Shown here piece by piece: positions 16,374 to 23,804 of a DNA stretch of 32,000 bases. The notes under the pieces were generated by a model. The model made no database searches. It was not told where the DNA came from and saw only the letters and a list, made by a program, of their open reading frames with translations. The DNA is taken from the NCBI RefSeq assembly GCF_001457615.1, contig NZ_LN831024.1, positions 2,940,001 through 2,972,000 on the forward strand, read 5' to 3'. Every line of letters begins with the position of its first letter. Within the stretch, counting starts at the first letter, position 1. A program made the position numbers and the translations under genes. The DNA comes from Pseudomonas aeruginosa. Lineage in GTDB: Bacteria; Pseudomonadota; Gammaproteobacteria; Pseudomonadales; Pseudomonadaceae.

Positions 16374-16484
16374 GGGGGCGGGCCGGTCCGCGCCGCGGGC
16401 CGGTCCTTTGGCCGGCGAGAGCCACGCACGGGTGGCGCCATATCCATATGCGTTTTCGGTATTTCCGCTTGATCGTTCATGGCG

Positions 16485-16513
16485 TTTACCATCACAGCAT
16501 AACTTGTTATAAC
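16485..16513 (+). promoter_or_regulatory. Candidate sigma70 promoter of the GntR-led operon
   Basis: -35 TTTACC (16485-16490), a 17-nt spacer and -10 TATAAC (16508-16513), in the most AT-rich part of the chiC-GntR spacer. Confidence 0.4.
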
Positions 16514-16517
16514 AAGT
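16502..16517. promoter_or_regulatory. Perfect 16-bp palindrome ACTTGTTATAACAAGT, candidate GntR/HutC-family operator
   Basis: Exactly self-complementary with the GT…AC core characteristic of GntR-family operators. It overlaps the candidate -10 and lies 32 bp upstream of the regulator's ATG. Confidence 0.55.
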
Positions 16518-16548
16518 GTCCGAGCCACTCCGACAAGCGAATCCGACC

Positions 16549-17298
16549 ATGGGCAAACTGCTCCCGCTTTCCCCCGTGCCGCTGTACAGCCAGCTCAAGG
16601 AGCTGCTGCGCGGGCGCATCCTCGACGGCGTCTACCCGCCGCTCAGCCGCATGCCCTCGGAGAACGAGCTGGGCAAGGCCTTCGACGTCAGCCGCATCAC
16701 CGTGCGCCAGGCGCTCGGCGACCTGCAGAAGGAAGGGCTGATCTTCAAGATCCACGGCAAGGGCACCTTCGTCGCCCGGCCGAAGGCGTTCCAGAACGTC
16801 AGCACCCTGCAAGGCCTGGGCGAGTCCATGACGCAGATGGGCTACGAGGTCATCAACCGCCTGCATGGCCTGCGCTACGTGCCGGCCGGCGCGCGGGTGG
16901 CCGAGCGCCTGCGGGTGGAAGAGGGCAGCCCTGTGTGCGAGATCAAGCGGGTGCGGCTGGTCAACCGCGAGCCGGTTTCGCTGGAAGTCACCTACCTGCC
17001 GCAGGCGCTCGGCGAGCGCCTGGAGAAGGCCGACCTGGTGACCCGCGACATCTTCCTGATCCTCGAGAACGATTGCGGCATTCCCCTCGGCCATGCCGAC
17101 CTGGCCATCGACGCGGTGCTCGCCGATGCCGACCTGACCCGCGCCCTGGCGGTCGAGGAGGGCGCGCCGATCATGCGTATCGAGCGCCTGACCCATGCCG
17201 CCGACGGCGCGCCGCTGGACTTCGAATACCTCTACTACCGCGGCGACGCTTTCCAGTATCGCCTGCGCATCGATCGGCAGAAGGGAGAGCGGGCATGA
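16549..17298 (+). CDS. GntR-family transcriptional regulator, HutC subfamily (wHTH plus UTRA effector domain)
   Basis: N-terminal LYSQLKELLRGRILDGVYPPLSRMPSENELGKAFDVSRITVRQALGDLQKEGLIFKIHGKGTFV is a canonical GntR wHTH, and the C-terminal half is UTRA-like. ATG 16549 is preferred over GTG 16516, which lies inside the operator/promoter. Confidence 0.88.
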   Translation: MGKLLPLSPVPLYSQLKELLRGRILDGVYPPLSRMPSENELGKAFDVSRITVRQALGDLQKEGLIFKIHGKGTFVARPKAFQNVSTLQGLGESMTQMGYEVINRLHGLRYVPAGARVAERLRVEEGSPVCEIKRVRLVNREPVSLEVTYLPQALGERLEKADLVTRDIFLILENDCGIPLGHADLAIDAVLADADLTRALAVEEGAPIMRIERLTHAADGAPLDFEYLYYRGDAFQYRLRIDRQKGERA

Positions 17299-19019
17299 AC
17301 ACCCTGGAGCAGGAATACGACATCGTGGTGATCGGCGGCGGCACCGCCGGGCCGATGGCGGCGATCAAGGCCAAGGAGCACGACCGCGAACTGCGCGTGC
17401 TGCTGGTGGACAAGGCCAACGTCAAGCGCAGCGGCGCCATCAGCATGGGCATGGACGGGTTGAACAACGCCATCGTCCCCGGCCACGCCACGGCCGAGCA
17501 GTACACCCGGGAAATCACCGTGGCCAACGACGGCATCGTCAACCAGGCGGCGGTATACGCCTATGCCAGCCACAGCTTCGAGACCCTGCGGCAGCTGGAT
17601 CGCTGGGGCGTCAGGTTCGAAAAGGACGAGACCGGCGACTATGCGGTGAAGAAGGTCCACCACATGGGCGCCTATGTGCTGCCGATGCCGGAAGGGCACG
17701 ACATCAAGAAGGTGCTCTACCGCCAGCTCAAGCGTGCGCGGATCCCCATCGCCAACCGCCTGGTCTGCACCCGCCTGCTCACCGATGCCGAGGGCGCGGT
17801 GAACGGCGTACTCGGTTTCGACTGCCGCAGCGGCGACTTCCATGTGATCCGCGCCAAGGCGGTGATCCTTTGCTGCGGCGCGGCGGGCCGCCTGGGCCTG
17901 CCGTCCTCGGGCTACCTGATGGGTACCTACGAGAACCCGACCAACGCCGGCGACGGCTACGCCATGGCCTATCATGCCGGCGCCGAGCTGGCCAACCTGG
18001 AATGCTTCCAGATCAACCCGCTGATCAAGGACTACAACGGCCCGGCCTGTGCCTACGTCACCGGCCCGCTGGGTGGCTATACCGCCAACGCCAGGGGTGA
18101 GCGCTTCATCGAATGCGACTACTGGAGCGGGCAGATGATGTGGGAGTTCCACCAGGAACTCGAAGGCGGCAATGGCCCGGTGTTCCTCAAGCTCGACCAC
18201 CTGGCGGAGGAAACCATCCAGACCATCGAGGACATCCTCCATGGCAACGAACGCCCCAGTCGCGGGCAGTTCCACGCCGGGCGCGGCACCGACTACCGCC
18301 AGCAGATGGTCGAGATGCACATTTCCGAGATCGGCTTCTGCTCCGGCCACTCGGCCTCCGGCGTGTGGGTCAACGAGAAGGCCGAGACCAGCGTGAAGGG
18401 CCTCTACGCAGCCGGCGACATGGCCGCGGTGCCGCACAACTACATGCTCGGCGCCTTCACCTATGGCTGGTTCGCCGGGCGCAACGCCGCCGAATACGTC
18501 GCCGGGCGCGCCTTCAGCGCGGTCGACAGCGCCCAGGTCGAGCGCGAGCGTGCGCGGATCGAGGCGCCGCTGCTGCGCGAGCATGGCCTGCCGGCGGCGC
18601 AGGTGGAGTACAAGCTGCGCCGGCTGGTCAACGACTACCTGCAACCGCCCAAGGTGACCCGCAAGATGGAATTGGGCCTGCAACGCATCCAGGCCATCGC
18701 CGAGGATCTGGAGCGGATCAAGGCGGACAACCCCCACGAGCTGATGCGCGCCCTGGAAGTCAGCGTTATCCGCGATTGCGCGGAGATGGCCGCGCGCGCC
18801 TCGCTGTTCCGCACCGAGAGCCGCTGGGGCCTGTACCACCACCGGGTGGACTATCCGCGGCGCGACGACGCTGCCTGGTTCTGCCACGCGCACCTGAAGA
18901 AGGACGAGCAGGGACGCATGGCCAGCTTCAGGAAACCGGTCGAACCCTACCTGTTCGCCATCGACGAGGGCGAACAGCAGGCCTACCAGCGCCTGCGGCT
19001 GAGGAACGACGCCGCCTAG
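17295..19019 (+). CDS. FAD-dependent oxidoreductase of the fumarate reductase/succinate dehydrogenase flavoprotein superfamily, AprA-like
   Basis: Rossmann motif DIVVIGGGTAGPMAA, GLYAAGD near the C-terminal FAD contact, and a tail RTESRWGLYHHRVDYPRRDD that I associate with APS-reductase alpha-type proteins. The start overlaps the regulator's stop (ATGA at 17295-17298). Confidence 0.8.
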   Translation: MNTLEQEYDIVVIGGGTAGPMAAIKAKEHDRELRVLLVDKANVKRSGAISMGMDGLNNAIVPGHATAEQYTREITVANDGIVNQAAVYAYASHSFETLRQLDRWGVRFEKDETGDYAVKKVHHMGAYVLPMPEGHDIKKVLYRQLKRARIPIANRLVCTRLLTDAEGAVNGVLGFDCRSGDFHVIRAKAVILCCGAAGRLGLPSSGYLMGTYENPTNAGDGYAMAYHAGAELANLECFQINPLIKDYNGPACAYVTGPLGGYTANARGERFIECDYWSGQMMWEFHQELEGGNGPVFLKLDHLAEETIQTIEDILHGNERPSRGQFHAGRGTDYRQQMVEMHISEIGFCSGHSASGVWVNEKAETSVKGLYAAGDMAAVPHNYMLGAFTYGWFAGRNAAEYVAGRAFSAVDSAQVERERARIEAPLLREHGLPAAQVEYKLRRLVNDYLQPPKVTRKMELGLQRIQAIAEDLERIKADNPHELMRALEVSVIRDCAEMAARASLFRTESRWGLYHHRVDYPRRDDAAWFCHAHLKKDEQGRMASFRKPVEPYLFAIDEGEQQAYQRLRLRNDAA

Positions 19020-19104
19020 GGCCCCACGCCCCGGCGTAGTACCGCTAGACACCGAGCCCGCCGCCACGAAAGCGGGCCAGATCGAACCACGAGGACCGCG
19101 TGCC

Positions 19105-19350
19105 ATGGCCTACCGACCCCAGGACATCTTCTTCCGCAGCAGCGCCCCGGTGACCATCGACGAAGACCGCTGCATCGCCGACAAGGGCTGCACCGTCTGC
19201 GTCGAGGTCTGCCCGATGGACCTGCTGGCCATCGATCCGACGACCCGCAAGGCCTACATGGCCTACGACGAGTGCTGGTACTGCATGCCTTGCGAAAAGG
19301 ACTGCCCGACCGGCGCGGTGAAGGTCGAGATTCCCTACCTGCTGCGCTGA
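19105..19350 (+). CDS. 2x[4Fe-4S] ferredoxin, AprB-N-terminal-like
   Basis: 81 aa with two cluster motifs: C-x5-C-x2-C-x3-CP (CIADKGCTVCVEVCP) and C-x2-C-x2-C-x3-CP (CWYCMPCEKDCP). RBS GAGGA is upstream. Confidence 0.85.
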   Translation: MAYRPQDIFFRSSAPVTIDEDRCIADKGCTVCVEVCPMDLLAIDPTTRKAYMAYDECWYCMPCEKDCPTGAVKVEIPYLLR

Positions 19351-19484
19351 CGCCCGCTCCCGGCAAGCGAGGCAGAACCCGCCATCCGGCCACTCCCGGA
19401 CGCCACTCTGAAACACCCCTCGTTTCCCACCACCGTCCGGGTGGCGGAGACGATTCCCATGACCATGATTCGAGGGGAATCCCC

Positions 19485-20891
19485 ATGCGACTGCGTGCAA
19501 TCCTGGCCAGCCTGGCGCTGGCCCTGACTTCCCTGGGTGCCCAGGCGGAAACCATCCGCGTGGCCATCGGCACTCAGGACACCACCATCAACTGCGCCGC
19601 CGGCGGGCTGCTGATCCGCGAGCTGGGCCTGCTGGAGAAATACCTGCCGCGCGACGGCCGCTACAAGGATGCGGACTACCGGGTGGAGTGGAAGAACTTC
19701 ACCAGTGGCGCACCGCTGACCAACGAGATGGTCGCCGGCAAGCTCGACTTCGGCGCCATGGCCGACTTTCCCGGCACCTTCAACGGTGTGGCCTTCGCCG
19801 CCGCCGGCAAGCGCAGCCTGTTCATCAGCGTGCTGTCCGGCAGCACCCGTGGCAGCGGCAACGGCATCGTGGTACCGAGCGGCTCGCCGGTGCAGTCGCT
19901 GGCCGAACTGAAAGGCCAGACCATCTCCGTACCGTTCGCCTCCACTGCCCATGGCATGCTGCTGCGCGCGGTGGCGGCGCAAGGCTGGGACCCGCAGCGC
20001 GACGTGACCATCATCGCCCAGCCGCCGGAAATCGCCGGTTCGGCCTTGCAGGCGAACAAGATTGCCGCCCATGCCGACTTCGTACCCTTCGCCGAGCTGT
20101 TCCCCAATCGCGGCTTCGCCCGCAAGATCTACGACGGTTCCCAGGCCAACGCGCCGACCTTCCATGGCGCGCTGGTGGACGCCGCCTACGCCGAGCGCTA
20201 TCCGGAGGTGGTGGTGGCCTACCTGCGGGCGAGCATCGAAGCCAATCGACTGCTGGCCGCCGAACCGGAGAAATACAGCGAGCTGATCGAGAAGGTCACC
20301 GGCATCGAGGCCGAGGTCAATTACCTGTTCCACGGTCCGCTCGGCCTGCAGACCCGCGACCAGGCCTGGAAACCCGAATACCGCCAGGCGCTGGCGACCT
20401 CCATCGACACCCTGAAGCTGCTGAAGAAGGCCGACCGTGGGCTGGACGTCGAGCGTTTCGTCGACGACCGCTACATCCGCGAGGCCTACCGTCAGGCCGG
20501 GCTGGACTACCAGGCGGCGCTGGCAGACTACGCACCGTCGCCGCTGCGCGCCAGCGACGCGCGCAGCGGCCGGCCGATCGAGGAGTTCGAACGGGTAGCG
20601 CAGATCTGGGTGAAGGGCGAGGCCAGGGTGCGCCATTACGCTTCGCCGGAGTCGGCCCTGGCCGATCTTGCCGAGCTGAAGGCGCAGGGCAAGGCGATTC
20701 GTGCGATCTACGCCCAGGATCGTGACAGCGGGATCAAGCTGCTGGCCAACCAGGCGTGGTTCGTCCGCGACGGCGAGGGTCGCCTCAACGCCTTCCTGCT
20801 CCGCGAGCAGGCCCAGGACTATGCCCGCCGCCATGGCGGCGAGGTACGCGACTTTGCCGCCGCCAGCCAGCAGGCGCTGGCGCTCCGCTGA
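19485..20891 (+). CDS. Periplasmic ABC substrate-binding protein (NMT1/SsuA-like) with an extra C-terminal domain of about 120 aa
   Basis: Signal peptide MRLRAILASLALALTSLGAQA/ETI and RBS GAGGGGA. The body resembles sulfonate/nitrate/HMP-type binding proteins, and the tail from about 20520 onward lies beyond the usual fold. ORF-track start 19272 is rejected. Confidence 0.8.
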   Translation: MRLRAILASLALALTSLGAQAETIRVAIGTQDTTINCAAGGLLIRELGLLEKYLPRDGRYKDADYRVEWKNFTSGAPLTNEMVAGKLDFGAMADFPGTFNGVAFAAAGKRSLFISVLSGSTRGSGNGIVVPSGSPVQSLAELKGQTISVPFASTAHGMLLRAVAAQGWDPQRDVTIIAQPPEIAGSALQANKIAAHADFVPFAELFPNRGFARKIYDGSQANAPTFHGALVDAAYAERYPEVVVAYLRASIEANRLLAAEPEKYSELIEKVTGIEAEVNYLFHGPLGLQTRDQAWKPEYRQALATSIDTLKLLKKADRGLDVERFVDDRYIREAYRQAGLDYQAALADYAPSPLRASDARSGRPIEEFERVAQIWVKGEARVRHYASPESALADLAELKAQGKAIRAIYAQDRDSGIKLLANQAWFVRDGEGRLNAFLLREQAQDYARRHGGEVRDFAAASQQALALR

Positions 20892-20915
20892 GGCGGGCGT
20901 CTTCGGAGTCCGCCC

Positions 20916-21713
20916 ATGAGTTCGCTTCCGATCTCCCGACCCTGGCGCTGGGCCACCCGCGCCGCTTCGCTGGCGGCCTGCCTGGCGTTCTGGCAGCTCG
21001 CCGCCGGTCTGCAACTGAATCTGGGCCTGGTGACCTTCGCCAACGTGCCGACGCCCGGTGCGGTGTTGCTGGCGGCCTGCAACCTGGCCCAGTCCAGCGT
21101 GCTCCTGGCGCACCTCGGCGCCAGTCTGGCGCGGGTCTTCGCCGGCTATCTGCTGGCCGCCGCGCTGGGCATCGCCCTCGGCCTGGCGATCGGCCGCTCG
21201 GCCTGGGCCGAGGCCTTGCTGCTGCCGCCGCTGGAAGTGCTGCGGCCGATCCCGGCGGTGGCCTGGATTCCCCTGGCGATCCTGATGTTCCCTTCGTCGG
21301 AGGCCTCGATGATCTTCATTACCTTCACCGGCGCGCTGTTCCCGATCCTGCTCAATACCGTGCATGGCGTGGAGGCGCTCGATCCGCGCCTGCTGGCTTC
21401 GGCGCGCAGCCTGGGGGCGGGGCGCCGGGCGCTGCTGCGCGAGGTGCTGCTGCCCGGCGCCGGACCGGGCATCTTCACCGGCCTGGCGATCGGCATGGGC
21501 ACCTCCTGGTTCTGCCTGGTGACCGCCGAGATGATCTCCGGGCAATGGGGACTGGGTTACTACACCTGGGCTTCCTACAACATCCAGAACTACGACGAGG
21601 TGGTGGTCGGCATGCTGCTCATCGGCCTCTTCGGCATGGGCAGTAGTGGGTTGGTGAAGCGCGTCGGCGCGTCGCTGACGCCCTGGTACGCGGCGGGAGG
21701 CAAGGTCCGATGA
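20916..21713 (+). CDS. ABC transporter permease (SsuC/TauC-like family)
   Basis: 265 aa, polytopic, with EAA-type loop LLASARSLGAGRRALLREVLLPGAGPGIFTGL. Confidence 0.88.
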   Translation: MSSLPISRPWRWATRAASLAACLAFWQLAAGLQLNLGLVTFANVPTPGAVLLAACNLAQSSVLLAHLGASLARVFAGYLLAAALGIALGLAIGRSAWAEALLLPPLEVLRPIPAVAWIPLAILMFPSSEASMIFITFTGALFPILLNTVHGVEALDPRLLASARSLGAGRRALLREVLLPGAGPGIFTGLAIGMGTSWFCLVTAEMISGQWGLGYYTWASYNIQNYDEVVVGMLLIGLFGMGSSGLVKRVGASLTPWYAAGGKVR

Positions 21714-22564
21714 CGACGGCCGGCAACAGCCTGGGGCGCATCCAGATCCGCGACCTGAGCATCCGCCTGGGGCAGGGGAGCGAAGCCTTCGAGGCGGTCC
21801 GCGATCTGAGCCTGGAGGCGCGGCCGGGCGAGTTCGTCTGCCTGCTCGGGCCTTCGGGATGCGGCAAGTCGACCCTGCTCGGCGCCCTGGCCGGCCACCT
21901 GCGGCCAAGCGCCGGCAGCGTGAGGGTCGACGGCCGGAGCGTGGAAGGACCTTCGCCGCAGCGTGGCATGGTATTCCAGCAGCACACCCTGTTCCCCTGG
22001 CGGCGGGTCCGCGACAACGTCGCCTTCGGCCTGAAGATGCAGGGCCTGGCCCGCGCCGAGCGCAACCGGCGCGCCATGGAGATGCTCGGACTGGTGGGGC
22101 TGGCGGACTTCGCCGGGCGCTGGCCCGGCCAACTGTCCGGGGGTATGCAGCAGCGCGTGGAGATCGCCCGGGTGCTGGTCAACCGGCCGCGCCTGCTGCT
22201 GATGGACGAGCCCTTCGGCGCCCTCGACGCGCAGACCCGGCTGAAGATGCAGACCTTGCTGCTGGACGTATGGGCGCGGGTCCGCACCACGGTGCTGTTC
22301 GTCACCCACGACATCGACGAGGCCCTGTACCTGGCGGACAGGGTGCTGGTGATGAGCCCCCGTCCGGGACGGATCATCGCCGACCTGGCGCTGGACTTCC
22401 CGCGCCCTCGCGACACCCGGCTGGTGACCAGCGCCGACTTCGTGCGCCTGAAACGCCACTGCCTGGAACTGCTCGACCACGACGACGGCCGCCAGTTGCC
22501 GCGCCTGACCCCGCTCGGCTTGCCGCCGGGCATCACCCCGGACCGACTGCGGATCGCCATATGA
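21710..22564 (+). CDS. ABC transporter ATP-binding protein
   Basis: Walker A GPSGCGKST, signature LSGGMQQR, Walker B LLLMDEPF and H-loop VTHD. The start overlaps the permease stop (ATGA at 21710-21713). Confidence 0.93.
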   Translation: MTTAGNSLGRIQIRDLSIRLGQGSEAFEAVRDLSLEARPGEFVCLLGPSGCGKSTLLGALAGHLRPSAGSVRVDGRSVEGPSPQRGMVFQQHTLFPWRRVRDNVAFGLKMQGLARAERNRRAMEMLGLVGLADFAGRWPGQLSGGMQQRVEIARVLVNRPRLLLMDEPFGALDAQTRLKMQTLLLDVWARVRTTVLFVTHDIDEALYLADRVLVMSPRPGRIIADLALDFPRPRDTRLVTSADFVRLKRHCLELLDHDDGRQLPRLTPLGLPPGITPDRLRIAI

Positions 22565-23526
22565 CCTGTAAAAACGCCACCCTGCCCGAAATCCTCGAAC
22601 TGTCGCCGCGCCTGGAGGACGCCGACCCCGGCGTACGCCGCCTGGCGCTGATCGAACTGGCCGACCTGGAGCTGCCGGAGGCGCTGCCGTTGCTGATTGC
22701 GGCCCTGCGCGGCGATCCCGACCCCGGCGTGCGCGGCGAGGCCGCGCGCCTGCTGGAGGCCTGGGAGGAAGACGCGGTGGTCGATGCGCTCTGTGCGGCC
22801 CTGGCCGATCCGGTGCCGGCGGTGGCCGATGCCGCCGCGCAGAGCCTTGGCGAACTCAAGGAACCGGCCGTCGGGCGGCGCCTGCTGCCGTGGCTCGGGC
22901 ATGCCGATGCCTTCGTCCGCGCCAGCGTATTGCGTGCGTTGCGCGAACTGCGCCTGGAGGAGAGCGCCGTGCCGGCCCTGGCCGCCCTCGGCGATCCGCA
23001 GGCGGCGGTGCGCCGCGAGGCGGTGGCGGTACTCGGCTGGCTCCGCCACCAGCCGGCCCTGGCCGAACTGGCCAGGCTGGCCAGCGCCGATGTCGACCCG
23101 GAGGTACGCCGGGCGGCCACCGGCGCCCTCGGCCTGAGCCGCGAGGCGACGGTGCTGCCGGCGCTCTGCGCGGCGCTGGCGGACGCTCAATGGCAGGTTC
23201 GCGAAGAGGCGGCGACGACCCTTGGCAAGCTGGGCCGGGAGGAGGCCGGCGAGCCGCTGCTGAAGGCCCTGGCGGACGACTACTGGCAGGTCCGCCTGCG
23301 CGCCGCGCGGGCGCTCGGGCGCTTGCGCCACCGCCCGGCGCGGGAGGCGCTGGAAGCATTGCTCGGCCATCCCATCGGCAACCTGCGCAAGGAGGCCGCC
23401 CTGGCCCTCGGCGAACTGGCGGACCCGGCCTCGGCCCAGGCCTTGCGGGTCGCCGAAGGCGACGGCGATCCCGAGGTGCGCAAGGCGGTGCGCATCGCCC
23501 TGGCGCAACTGCGGATGCCGGCATGA
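22561..23526 (+). CDS. HEAT-repeat (PBS-lyase-type) protein
   Basis: 321 aa made almost entirely of about ten 31-aa repeats of the form L..aL.D.d..VR..Aa.aLG.l. The start overlaps the ATPase stop (ATGA at 22561-22564). Confidence 0.85.
   Translation: MTCKNATLPEILELSPRLEDADPGVRRLALIELADLELPEALPLLIAALRGDPDPGVRGEAARLLEAWEEDAVVDALCAALADPVPAVADAAAQSLGELKEPAVGRRLLPWLGHADAFVRASVLRALRELRLEESAVPALAALGDPQAAVRREAVAVLGWLRHQPALAELARLASADVDPEVRRAATGALGLSREATVLPALCAALADAQWQVREEAATTLGKLGREEAGEPLLKALADDYWQVRLRAARALGRLRHRPAREALEALLGHPIGNLRKEAALALGELADPASAQALRVAEGDGDPEVRKAVRIALAQLRMPA
22600..23510 (+). repeat. Intragenic tandem array of about 10 HEAT-like units (about 93-nt period)
   Basis: Recurrent D(P/A)xxxVR(x)2A(x)3LG units, e.g. 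DADPGVRRLA, DPDPGVRGEA, DPQAAVRREA, DVDPEVRRAA, DAQWQVREEA, DDYWQVRLRA, DGDPEVRKAV. Confidence 0.7.
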
Positions 23527-23804
23527 CCCAGCCGCCGCTGCGCCTGCGCAATTCCGCCAGGGACGGCTGGCTGATGCTCGAATGGGCGGACGGCGCGGTC
23601 AGCCGGATCGACCATGCGCGCCTGCGCGCCGCCTGTCCCTGTGCGCAATGCCGGGCGCAGCGCCTGCGCGGACGGATCGTCGCGGCGGAGCAGGGCGTGC
23701 GCCTGCGCGATATCCGCCTGCAGGGCTACGGCGTGCAGTTGCTGTTCGACGATGGTCACGAGCGCGGTATCTACCCCTGGTCCTATCTGCGCGACGAACT
23801 CTGA
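23523..23804 (+). CDS. DUF971-family small protein (gamma-butyrobetaine-hydroxylase N-terminal-like Zn/Cys domain)
   Basis: 93 aa with LEWADG…RLRAACPCAQC (CPCAQC at 23634-23651) and the C-terminal DDGHERGIYPWSYLR typical of DUF971. The start overlaps the HEAT gene's stop (ATGA at 23523-23526). Confidence 0.75.
   Translation: MTQPPLRLRNSARDGWLMLEWADGAVSRIDHARLRAACPCAQCRAQRLRGRIVAAEQGVRLRDIRLQGYGVQLLFDDGHERGIYPWSYLRDEL

Follow-up and report, generated by a model that had tools for sequence, protein, structure and literature searches.

Within a 32,000-nucleotide stretch of Pseudomonas aeruginosa DNA (contig NZ_LN831024.1, positions 2,940,001 to 2,972,000; the whole stretch is hereafter the window), eight plus-strand genes lie head to tail (16516-23804), among them a flavoprotein and a small ferredoxin built like the subunits of adenylylsulfate (APS) reductase, AprA and AprB, and a NitT/TauT-type ATP-binding cassette (ABC) importer. 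Four observations form the firm part of our account—the AprAB-like fold and homology of the pair, its loss of the residues with which AprA holds adenylate, the retention of the genes as a unit across phyla, and the induction of the operon by sulfur starvation. To explain them we favor a reading to which we give about an even chance, namely that the pair acts as a ferredoxin-fed reductase releasing sulfite from an imported, non-nucleotide organosulfur compound, and would thus provide the catalysis in a sulfur-scavenging operon that is complete in itself. An earlier note on this DNA had proposed an APS-reductase-like pair with a possible tie to an imported organosulfur compound; that interpretation is partly supported, as the scaffold and the organosulfur link hold and APS-type substrate binding does not.

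Both reading frames lie at the positions where the earlier note had placed them, on the plus strand (see the table below), and the 574-aa flavoprotein has the fumarate-reductase-type flavin adenine dinucleotide (FAD) fold ascribed to it there, with Pfam matches to FAD_binding_2 (120 bits) and Succ_DH_flav_C (57 bits) and the expected C-terminal segment, RTESRWGLYHHRVDYPRRDD, at residues 506-525. The protein is a full-length member of NCBIfam NF006131 (PRK08275; 1137 bits against a cut-off of 587), whose label, 'fumarate reductase/succinate dehydrogenase flavoprotein subunit', is a generic one for an uncharacterised family with no function attached. Two protein clusters of P. aeruginosa match it at 100% and 99% identity. 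The proposed hidden Markov model (HMM) comparison with other characterised families set it well apart from all of them, with scores far under the cut-offs for SdhA/FrdA (84-175 bits; cut-offs 567 or more), NadB (66-126 bits; 453-723), and TcuA (63 bits; 369). Neither does it belong to AprA proper, scoring 186 bits with TIGR02061 (cut-off 641.75) and 292 bits with NF005331 (cut-off 557).

Comparison with solved structures bore out the suspected likeness to AprA. A sequence search of the PDB returned the alpha subunit of the phosphoadenylylsulfate (PAPS) reductase of Methanothermococcus thermolithotrophicus at E 6e-62 and Archaeoglobus fulgidus AprA at 1e-42, as against 1e-26 for Escherichia coli SdhA. 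An AlphaFold2 model built from a diverse 65-sequence alignment (predicted local distance difference test, pLDDT, 93; predicted template-modeling score 0.94) has the three-domain AprA fold, and Foldseek matched it to the PAPS reductase 8a8o_A with template-modeling (TM) scores of 0.91/0.94 and a root-mean-square deviation of 1.9 A, to AprA (2fja_A and 1jnr_A) with TM scores of 0.89-0.90, and to FrdA/SdhA with scores of about 0.83. A previous AlphaFold model was discarded (pLDDT 47.6); its alignment was shallow, with 21 sequences drawn solely from Pseudomonas and Streptomyces.

The ferredoxin extends this resemblance. It has 4Fe-4S dicluster, Fer4_7, and related Pfam matches, and its eight cysteines form the two [4Fe-4S] motifs that had been recognized (C23-x5-C29-x2-C32-x3-C36-P and C57-x2-C60-x2-C63-x3-C67-P), though the spacer reads CP-MDLLAID-PTTRKAYM-A-YDE-CWYCMPCEKDCP, with three residues rather than the five first described before CWYC. 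Its best single-domain alignment in the PDB is to the N-terminal part of Desulfovibrio gigas AprB (3gyx_B, 36 bits), and it shares with AprB the pattern CPxDL..DP...KA...CWxC, including a conserved tryptophan after the first cysteine of the second motif (Trp58); in AprB, the corresponding cluster I tryptophan, Trp-B48, lies between that cluster and the FAD (PMC2211403). The differences are equally clear—the aprB model TIGR02060 gives 39.7 bits against a cut-off of 135.65, the first motif is C-x5-C-x2-C-x3-CP where AprB has C-x2-C-x7-C-x3-CP, and the AprB beta-hairpin and its tail of 80-90 aa are missing, as the earlier note had said of the tail, such that the 81-aa chain ends, with EIPYLLR, 14 residues past the second CP motif (AprB chains have 150-166 aa). 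Judged by homology and by the predicted fold, the pair nonetheless resembles AprA/AprB more than it resembles any other characterised proteins.

The substrate pocket departs from this scaffold. The A. fulgidus and M. thermolithotrophicus sequences, reconstructed from HMMER alignments, were placed in an alignment with 14 members of the family (drawn from Pseudomonas, Cellvibrio, Streptomyces, and a metagenome clade), with AprA residue roles as compiled by Meyer and Kuever (PMC2211403). The two residues that touch the sulfo group in AprA, Asn-A74 and His-A398 (PMC2211403), are invariant among the 14 as Asn57 and His352, and His-A446 is likewise invariant as His381. These first two are, however, the only ones of the four active-center residues to be strictly kept; Trp-A234 is replaced by Tyr212 and Arg-A265 by Leu243, both invariant, so that the active-site check suggested in the earlier note came out divided. 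None of the adenylate channel and clamp is preserved: Tyr-A95 corresponds to Glu73, Trp-A144 and Gln-A145 to Tyr127 and Val128, Phe-A261 to Gln239, Val-A273 and Gly-A274 to Ala251 and Cys252, the channel residue Phe-A277 to Val255, and Leu-A278 to Thr/Ala256, while the segment bearing the adenine clamp Arg-A317 is deleted, with DYWSGQMM in its place. Glu-A141 is also replaced, by Lys/Arg119. In M. thermolithotrophicus PAPS reductase, a loop of Lys120-Arg121-Ser122 gives specificity for the 3'-phosphate (PMC10322725); at this position, the window flavoprotein has a longer conserved loop, KKVHHMGAYVLPMPEGHD.

From Pseudomonas to Streptomyces, the family is invariant at the replaced positions, and we therefore consider the pocket to have been rebuilt rather than decayed, which argues for a different leaving group and not for a dead enzyme. 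The residue pattern indicates that the flavoprotein cannot bind adenylylsulfate in the manner of AprA, and the acidic Glu73, together with many invariant pocket aromatics, could suit a cationic or zwitterionic substrate. These replacements and the missed AprA cut-offs overturn the assignment to the APS reductase family, and they led us to reject a true APS/PAPS reductase as a candidate. To the idea that the pair is a genuine assimilatory or dissimilatory enzyme of that kind we give next to no credence, even though its closest solved structures are of this type; apart from the altered residues and the scores, searches with Pfam and curated family models found no sat or cysC in the cassette, and the tree described below sets the family apart from AprA and the PAPS reductases.

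In a neighbor-joining tree, drawn without bootstrap, the sequences fell into three groups—the window family joined by several clades of 37-45% identity, AprA with the PAPS reductases, and a large radiation of unnamed proteins—and no sampled clade carried a specific NCBIfam name. The window family is a distinct clade with a different pocket, a HEAT-repeat subunit, and aerobic hosts. Its best match in both sequence and fold, the M. thermolithotrophicus PAPS reductase (8a8o; Jespersen and Wagner 2023, PMC10322725), likewise combines an FAD alpha subunit with a short beta subunit consisting mostly of a 2x[4Fe-4S] ferredoxin domain, keeps the flavin-side Asn and His, and is itself assimilatory and reductive. 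At 28-29% identity, however, the archaeal enzyme retains the AprA catalytic residues and its 3'-phosphate loop where the window protein has Leu243 for Arg, no Arg-A317 segment, and the longer loop, and no HEAT partner, importer, or DUF971 protein has been reported for it. The PAPS-reductase-like representatives in our set show the AprA pattern N-Y-R-S-W-R-T-G-Q-R at the mapped positions, which the window family lacks. Relative to AprAB itself (A. fulgidus 1jnr/2fja; D. gigas 3gyx), the window flavoprotein shares the C-terminal ...ESRW..Y..R.DYP motif at 27-32% identity, and the setting also differs, being sat-apr-qmo-dsr in the one case and, as it appears, sulfur scavenging in respiring bacteria in the other.

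Paralogues named 'AprAB-like' have been described in the DiSCo study (PMC8477390) as AprA-like proteins with a tail-less AprB-like partner near sulfur-assimilation genes and nitT/tauT, and a role in sulfur assimilation was proposed for them; they occur mainly in Clostridia, Negativicutes, Deltaproteobacteria, Nitrospira, and Archaeoglobi, beside sat/cysC/asr (PMC8477390), and one has been shown to be a PAPS reductase (PMC10322725). They correspond to the clade of PAPS-reductase type, from which the window family is separate in our tree, in its HEAT partner, and in its aerobic taxa. The clades at 37-45% identity (L082, L084, and L085-L087, on metagenome contigs) pair their flavoprotein with a 66-78-aa ferredoxin ending in (F/L)PYL(I/L)(K/R), adjoin YeiH, an NhaC-type carrier, or TctCBA, and are without the HEAT gene; together with the third, unnamed radiation they point to many uncharacterised AprA-like enzyme pairs. 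Two further representatives (P0170 and P0224) have the LTGMEF motif and were set aside, as their contexts are unrelated and of anaerobe type.

Expression data connect the operon to sulfur. We take the window cassette to be PA2299-PA2292 of strain PAO1, counting genes from chiC as PA2300 and using product names and the PAO1 map rather than a sequence look-up; the product names given to these tags in the literature agree with the cassette. In a published PAO1 RNA-seq supplementary table comparing sulfur-free medium with 500 uM sulfate (PMC12581299), all seven genes from PA2299 to PA2293 were induced 10- to 20-fold (false discovery rates 1e-9 to 1.5e-4), with log2 fold changes of +3.93 (PA2299), +3.92 (PA2298), +4.30 (PA2297), +3.46 (PA2296), +3.25 (PA2295), +3.74 (PA2294), and +4.06 (PA2293). 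Values for the ssu genes PA3443 and PA3444 were +4.1 and +4.5, whereas the adjacent chiC fell 34-fold (-5.09) and PA2301 stood at +0.63 (PMC12581299). With tags matched by order and product name, the induced block coincides with the cassette, which places it in the sulfur-starvation regulon, and the opposite responses of chiC and the cassette (16516-23526) imply a sharp regulatory boundary in the 142-bp gap at 16374-16515. A functional tie to the neighboring chitinase and nonribosomal peptide synthetase genes was considered and dropped; they are not syntenic with the operon in other species, and chiC is repressed while the operon is induced.

The same unit recurs far beyond P. aeruginosa. Across 80 genomes of Pseudomonas, Cellvibrio, and Porticoccaceae, the flavoprotein is 84-89% identical and the eight-gene order is kept, with five P. 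putida-group loci lacking the transporter only. Searches of plasmids and chromids with tblastn extended the family to Paraburkholderia, Burkholderia, Ralstonia, and Cupriavidus (about 80% identity to the window flavoprotein), Acinetobacter baumannii (77%), Variovorax (71%), Acidithiobacillus caldus (68%), Methylobacterium, Methylocystis, and rhizobia (65-67%), Pseudanabaena and Nostoc (63-64%), and Actinobacteria (57-58%). Because the flavoprotein is so well conserved, both in the 80 genomes and in the distant taxa (57-81%), these are real genes and not chance open reading frames. The label 'aerobe' in the earlier note calls for a qualification, since P. aeruginosa also respires nitrate, although strict aerobes are among the hosts of the family as well.

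Flavoprotein, ferredoxin, and HEAT-repeat protein occur together in every family member whose locus was read far enough to tell, and Streptomyces and Tsukamurella encode the HEAT protein as a C-terminal extension of the flavoprotein, a fusion with the architecture of NCBIfam NF010374; in the window, the separate HEAT protein (HEAT_2, 256 bits) matches the C-terminal part (631-896) of that fusion model. From these gene patterns, the HEAT protein is an obligate third component. The unit is usually accompanied by the long SsuA-like ABC importer and by an Fe-S helper, which is DUF971 in gamma- and alphaproteobacteria and an Mrp/NBP35 carrier instead in cyanobacteria, while the regulators vary by phylum (HutC-type GntR, Crp/Fnr, or LysR). 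The cassette is often found on plasmids or chromids, including the 65-kb mobilizable pTcM1 of the acidophilic sulfur oxidiser A. caldus (L218), which suggests that it spreads horizontally as a module.

Gene neighborhoods in these relatives bear on both the substrate and the direction of electron flow. On two Pseudanabaena plasmids, flavoprotein, ferredoxin, HEAT, and Mrp genes are followed by YeiH and a TauE/SafE sulfite exporter (Pfam TauE, 111 bits), and a YeiH gene also stands beside a 44%-identical clade. Two sulfonate binding-protein genes lie upstream of the unit in Nostoc, a sulfatase gene lies downstream of it in P. citronellolis, and in Cupriavidus pinatubonensis it abuts genes for an NtaA/DmoA monooxygenase (flavin mononucleotide, FMN), an acyl-CoA-dehydrogenase-like protein, and an SsuA-type protein. 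Together with the sulfur-starvation response, the sulfite-exporter and sulfonate-gene neighbors strengthen the connection to imported organosulfur. In Methylobacterium radiotolerans, the last genes of the cluster encode FdxA and ferredoxin-NADP reductase, and pTcM1 carries FdxA and a 1153-aa pyridine-nucleotide (NAD(P)H-type) oxidoreductase alongside the cassette; such electron-donor modules suggest an enzyme that is reduced by ferredoxin, as APS and PAPS reductases are.

These donor genes count against an enzyme working in the opposite sense, in which electrons from sulfite, a sulfinate, or a thiosulfonate would pass through the flavin to the ferredoxin as in AprAB running in reverse. AprAB is reversible in sulfur oxidisers (PMC2211403), the flavin-side Asn and His are retained, and the unit is present in the sulfur oxidiser A. 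caldus; yet burning sulfite during sulfur starvation would be counter-productive, and the protein has no AMP site at which APS could be made. We regard an oxidative role as very unlikely.

A sulfur-free small molecule such as a carboxylate, amine, or heterocycle could also be the substrate, by analogy with SdhA, NadB, and TcuA, with the response to sulfur being indirect. The fumarate-reductase superfamily membership of the flavoprotein would fit this, as would the TctABC and NhaC-type carriers beside the neighboring clades, the GNAT and amidase genes that recur near the unit in Nostoc and Methylocystis, and the HutC-type regulator. This explanation must, however, account for induction about as strong as that of ssu with flanking genes left uninduced, for the sulfite-exporter and sulfonate-gene neighbors, and for NadB, TcuA, and SdhA scores far under the cut-offs. 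Furthermore, the His-Pro-Thr and catalytic Arg of E. coli SdhA align with Asn241-Pro-Leu243 and Gly257 of the flavoprotein, such that the His and Arg that bind the dicarboxylate in Sdh/Frd enzymes are both replaced. On balance, we consider a sulfur-free substrate improbable.

The nearest functional analogue is the arylsulfonate 'tool-kit' AsfA/AsfB/AsfC of Pseudomonas putida S-313, which likewise comprises a Frd-superfamily flavoprotein, a ferredoxin, an SsuA-like binding protein, and an ABC transporter. The asf genes are sulfur-regulated and needed with ssu for the use of arylsulfonates as sulfur source, and asfA serves as a marker gene (PMC4267179). In our comparison, AsfA was represented only by metagenome loci carrying the published asfA/asfB marker primers; metagenomes were scanned with the asfB primer, and in many loci the two primers lie about 1.1 kb from each other. 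The products of these loci include SsuA-like binding proteins along with a small ferredoxin and a flavoprotein of the Frd superfamily. Their flavoprotein is 25% identical to that of the window (83 bits), with TfrA and NadB rather than AprA as its best family models, and their ferredoxin is 37% identical over 57 aa; the asf binding protein is without the C-terminal domain of its window counterpart, the asf regulator is of LysR type, and HEAT and DUF971 partners are lacking. Identity of the window pair with AsfA/AsfB was accordingly rejected, given the 25% identity, 6 and at least 5 primer mismatches at the window sites, and a Variovorax orthologue without the primer peptide; asf is an architectural and physiological analogue from another family. 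For the Cupriavidus metallidurans CH34 'AsfA' (Rmet_4334), no homologue was found in a guessed 49-kb stretch around 0.8 Mb of NC_007974.

The shared architecture invites the role classically proposed for AsfA/AsfB, namely that the window pair is an electron-transfer module feeding a distinct desulfonating oxygenase (SsuD or MsuD, for example). The operon has no other catalytic gene, and the flavoprotein, small 2x[4Fe-4S] ferredoxin, and SsuA-like binding protein of the asfA-primer metagenome loci are matched part for part. Against such a role, Pfam found no NAD(P)H-binding domain in the flavoprotein, and relatives encode a separate ferredoxin-NADP reductase and FdxA, which makes the flavoprotein the acceptor and not the donor end of the chain; its AprA-type channel has been rebuilt with family-invariant residues rather than decayed, and AsfA is of another subfamily. 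We therefore think it unlikely that the pair merely passes electrons on. The asfA product itself (L152 8131-10073 and about 40 further metagenome loci, L098-L177) is a fumarate-reductase-superfamily flavoprotein ending in ...SRTETRGMHKREDFPKKDD and not a classical ferredoxin reductase; it may be catalytic rather than a mere electron carrier, which would call the textbook view of AsfAB electron transfer into question.

Under the reductive reading that we favor, the NitT/TauT-type ABC importer, with its unusually long SsuA-like binding protein, would take up an organosulfur compound whose sulfo group is attached to a leaving group other than a nucleotide. A cytoplasmic enzyme of three components (AprA-like flavoprotein, tail-less AprB-like ferredoxin, and HEAT protein) would reduce this compound at the FAD, with electrons presumably flowing from NAD(P)H through ferredoxin-NADP reductase (Fpr) and FdxA to the two clusters, the conserved Trp58, and the flavin. 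Reduced FAD would attack the sulfur as in AprA, forming a flavin-N5 adduct while Asn57 and His352 position and protonate the sulfo group, and sulfite would be released and then assimilated. The DUF971 protein would guard the Fe-S clusters against damage by air, a HutC-type repressor would control the operon, and the HEAT protein may serve either as a clamp on the ferredoxin, which has no tail, or as a docking site for the donor. More tentatively, and short of an even chance when its parts are taken together, the family may represent an unrecognised enzyme class descended from APS reductase, a 'sulfo-group reductase' that would depend on ferredoxin, need no O2, and break a non-nucleotide bond (S-O, S-N, or activated S-C) in the imported organosulfur compound via a flavin-N5-sulfite adduct, and in which the HEAT-repeat subunit would replace the AprB tail.

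Several points weigh against sulfite release by reduction. Arg-A265, among the four invariant active-center residues of AprA, is Leu here, so stabilization of a sulfite adduct is not assured. A few P. putida-group genomes retain the enzyme and yet are without the importer, the 37-45%-identity clades sit by TctABC or NhaC-type carriers, which are usually carboxylate movers, and the operon is headed by a HutC-type repressor and not by a known sulfur regulator. The sulfite-exporter neighborhood is known from one cyanobacterial lineage, and both TauE-family and NitT/TauT-family proteins also handle sulfur-free compounds. The expression argument depends on matching window genes to PAO1 tags by order, product names, and the PAO1 map rather than by sequence. 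Finally, our literature search found no biochemical or genetic test of the system and no identified substrate, nor any paper characterising PA2297/PA2298 or their orthologues, whose database names are generic.

To our knowledge, all well-characterised aerobic routes to sulfonate sulfur need O2 (TauD, SsuD, MsuD, and SfnG), and sulfate esters are handled by hydrolytic sulfatases or by the O2-dependent dioxygenase AtsK. TauABCD and SsuEADCB resemble the window operon in joining an importer, with homologous transporter parts, to one sulfite-releasing enzyme under sulfur-starvation control, but their enzymes are an alpha-ketoglutarate dioxygenase and an FMNH2 monooxygenase, whereas the Fe-S flavoprotein would need no O2. 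If sulfite is indeed released reductively, this would be a new O2-independent form of organosulfur mineralisation in soil, rhizosphere, freshwater, and clinical bacteria, opening an oxygenase-independent route to organosulfur for Pseudomonas, Burkholderiales, Acinetobacter, rhizobia, cyanobacteria, and Streptomyces; it would also assign a function to a seven- to eight-gene, strongly sulfur-responsive operon of P. aeruginosa and would show how the APS-reductase scaffold came to serve a purpose other than sulfate reduction.

The GntR-flavoprotein, permease-ATPase, ATPase-HEAT, and HEAT-DUF971 genes overlap by 4 bp each; with remaining gaps of 24-131 bp and with synteny in 80 loci, we consider the eight genes to be one operon. 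Upstream lie an AmbE-like nonribosomal peptide synthetase and the GH18/CBM5 chitinase, and downstream a pyrroloquinoline quinone (PQQ) glucose dehydrogenase and a TonB receptor.

Features of the cassette and its upstream border (window coordinates; PAO1 tags are presumed counterparts)
Feature	Coordinates	Strand	Presumed PAO1 tag	Remarks
chiC	14922-16373		PA2300	Chitinase gene upstream of the cassette
14-bp perfect palindrome CTTGTTATAACAAG	16503-16516	no strand		Candidate operator
GntR/HutC regulator	16516-17298	+	PA2299	Helix-turn-helix (HTH) and UTRA effector domains
574-aa FAD flavoprotein	17295-19019	+	PA2298	AprA/PAPS-reductase-alpha-like fold, substrate channel remodelled
81-aa 2x[4Fe-4S] ferredoxin subunit	19105-19350	+	PA2297	AprB N-terminal-domain-like
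468-aa periplasmic substrate-binding protein	19485-20891	+	PA2296	SsuA/TauA-like N-domain and C-terminal domain of about 140 aa
C-terminal domain of the binding protein	20475-20891			Conserved with the cassette
ABC permease, NitT/TauT type	20916-21713	+	PA2295	BPD_transp_1
ABC ATPase, NitT/TauT type	21710-22564	+	PA2294	ABC_tran
321-aa HEAT-repeat protein	22561-23526	+	PA2293	HEAT_2
93-aa DUF971 / GBBH-like_N protein	23523-23804	+	PA2292	PF06155

The importer had been called sulfonate-type, a label that holds for its nearest solved relatives, SsuA (2x26, E 7e-15) and TauA (6ssy, 2e-14), and fails at the curated cut-offs, the binding protein scoring 111.7 bits against 163.5 for SsuA_fam and 82.4 against 304 for TauA. 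Its permease resembles NtrB, SsuC, and TauC at scores under their cut-offs, and its ATPase is TauB-like (258 bits; cut-off 357). In Pfam, the binding protein matches NMT1_2 and NMT1, plus weakly NosL. The C-terminal domain travels with the cassette from Pseudomonas to cyanobacteria, being kept in Burkholderia, Cupriavidus, Rhizobium, Methylocystis, Methylobacterium, Variovorax, and Pseudanabaena and partly in Streptomyces. A copper-binding role for this tail was rejected, given the weakness of the NosL match (E 0.006) and the absence of Cys and Met from the segment.

The DUF971 protein (PF06155, 77 bits) belongs to a family put forward as Fe-S maintenance factors from cofitness with Mrp, BolA, and YggX (bioRxiv 10.1101/072470), and the PA2292-type protein is probably such a factor for Fe-S clusters. 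The regulator (GntR, 71 bits; UTRA, 130 bits) is syntenic in all 80 loci. The palindrome CTTGTTATAACAAG is unique in the window and directly precedes the annotated GTG start of the regulator gene, a position which suggests that the start is more likely the ATG at 16549. A version of it, CT[TC]GT[TC]AT[AG]ACAAG with at most 3 mismatches, recurs at the corresponding position ahead of gntR in 73 of 77 related loci, compared with 11 background matches in 1.58 Mb, and it is probably the operator of the HutC-type repressor.

Other genes vary around the cassette. GNAT acetyltransferase and amidase genes recur beside it on Nostoc edaphicum pNe_5 (L221) and a Methylocystis iwaonis plasmid (L223), which may hint at a substrate or product bearing an amine or amide, and in Nostoc the flavoprotein gene is separated from the ferredoxin gene by inserted HAD hydrolase, methyltransferase, and VOC genes. 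On Pseudanabaena galeata pPg_02 (L220 6676-8676) and in a second locus (L224), a divergent LysR-type regulator of 666 aa combines HTH and LysR_substrate domains with a further region 34% identical to the N-domain of the cassette binding protein, and may be a cytoplasmic sensor that re-uses the ligand-binding fold of the transporter.

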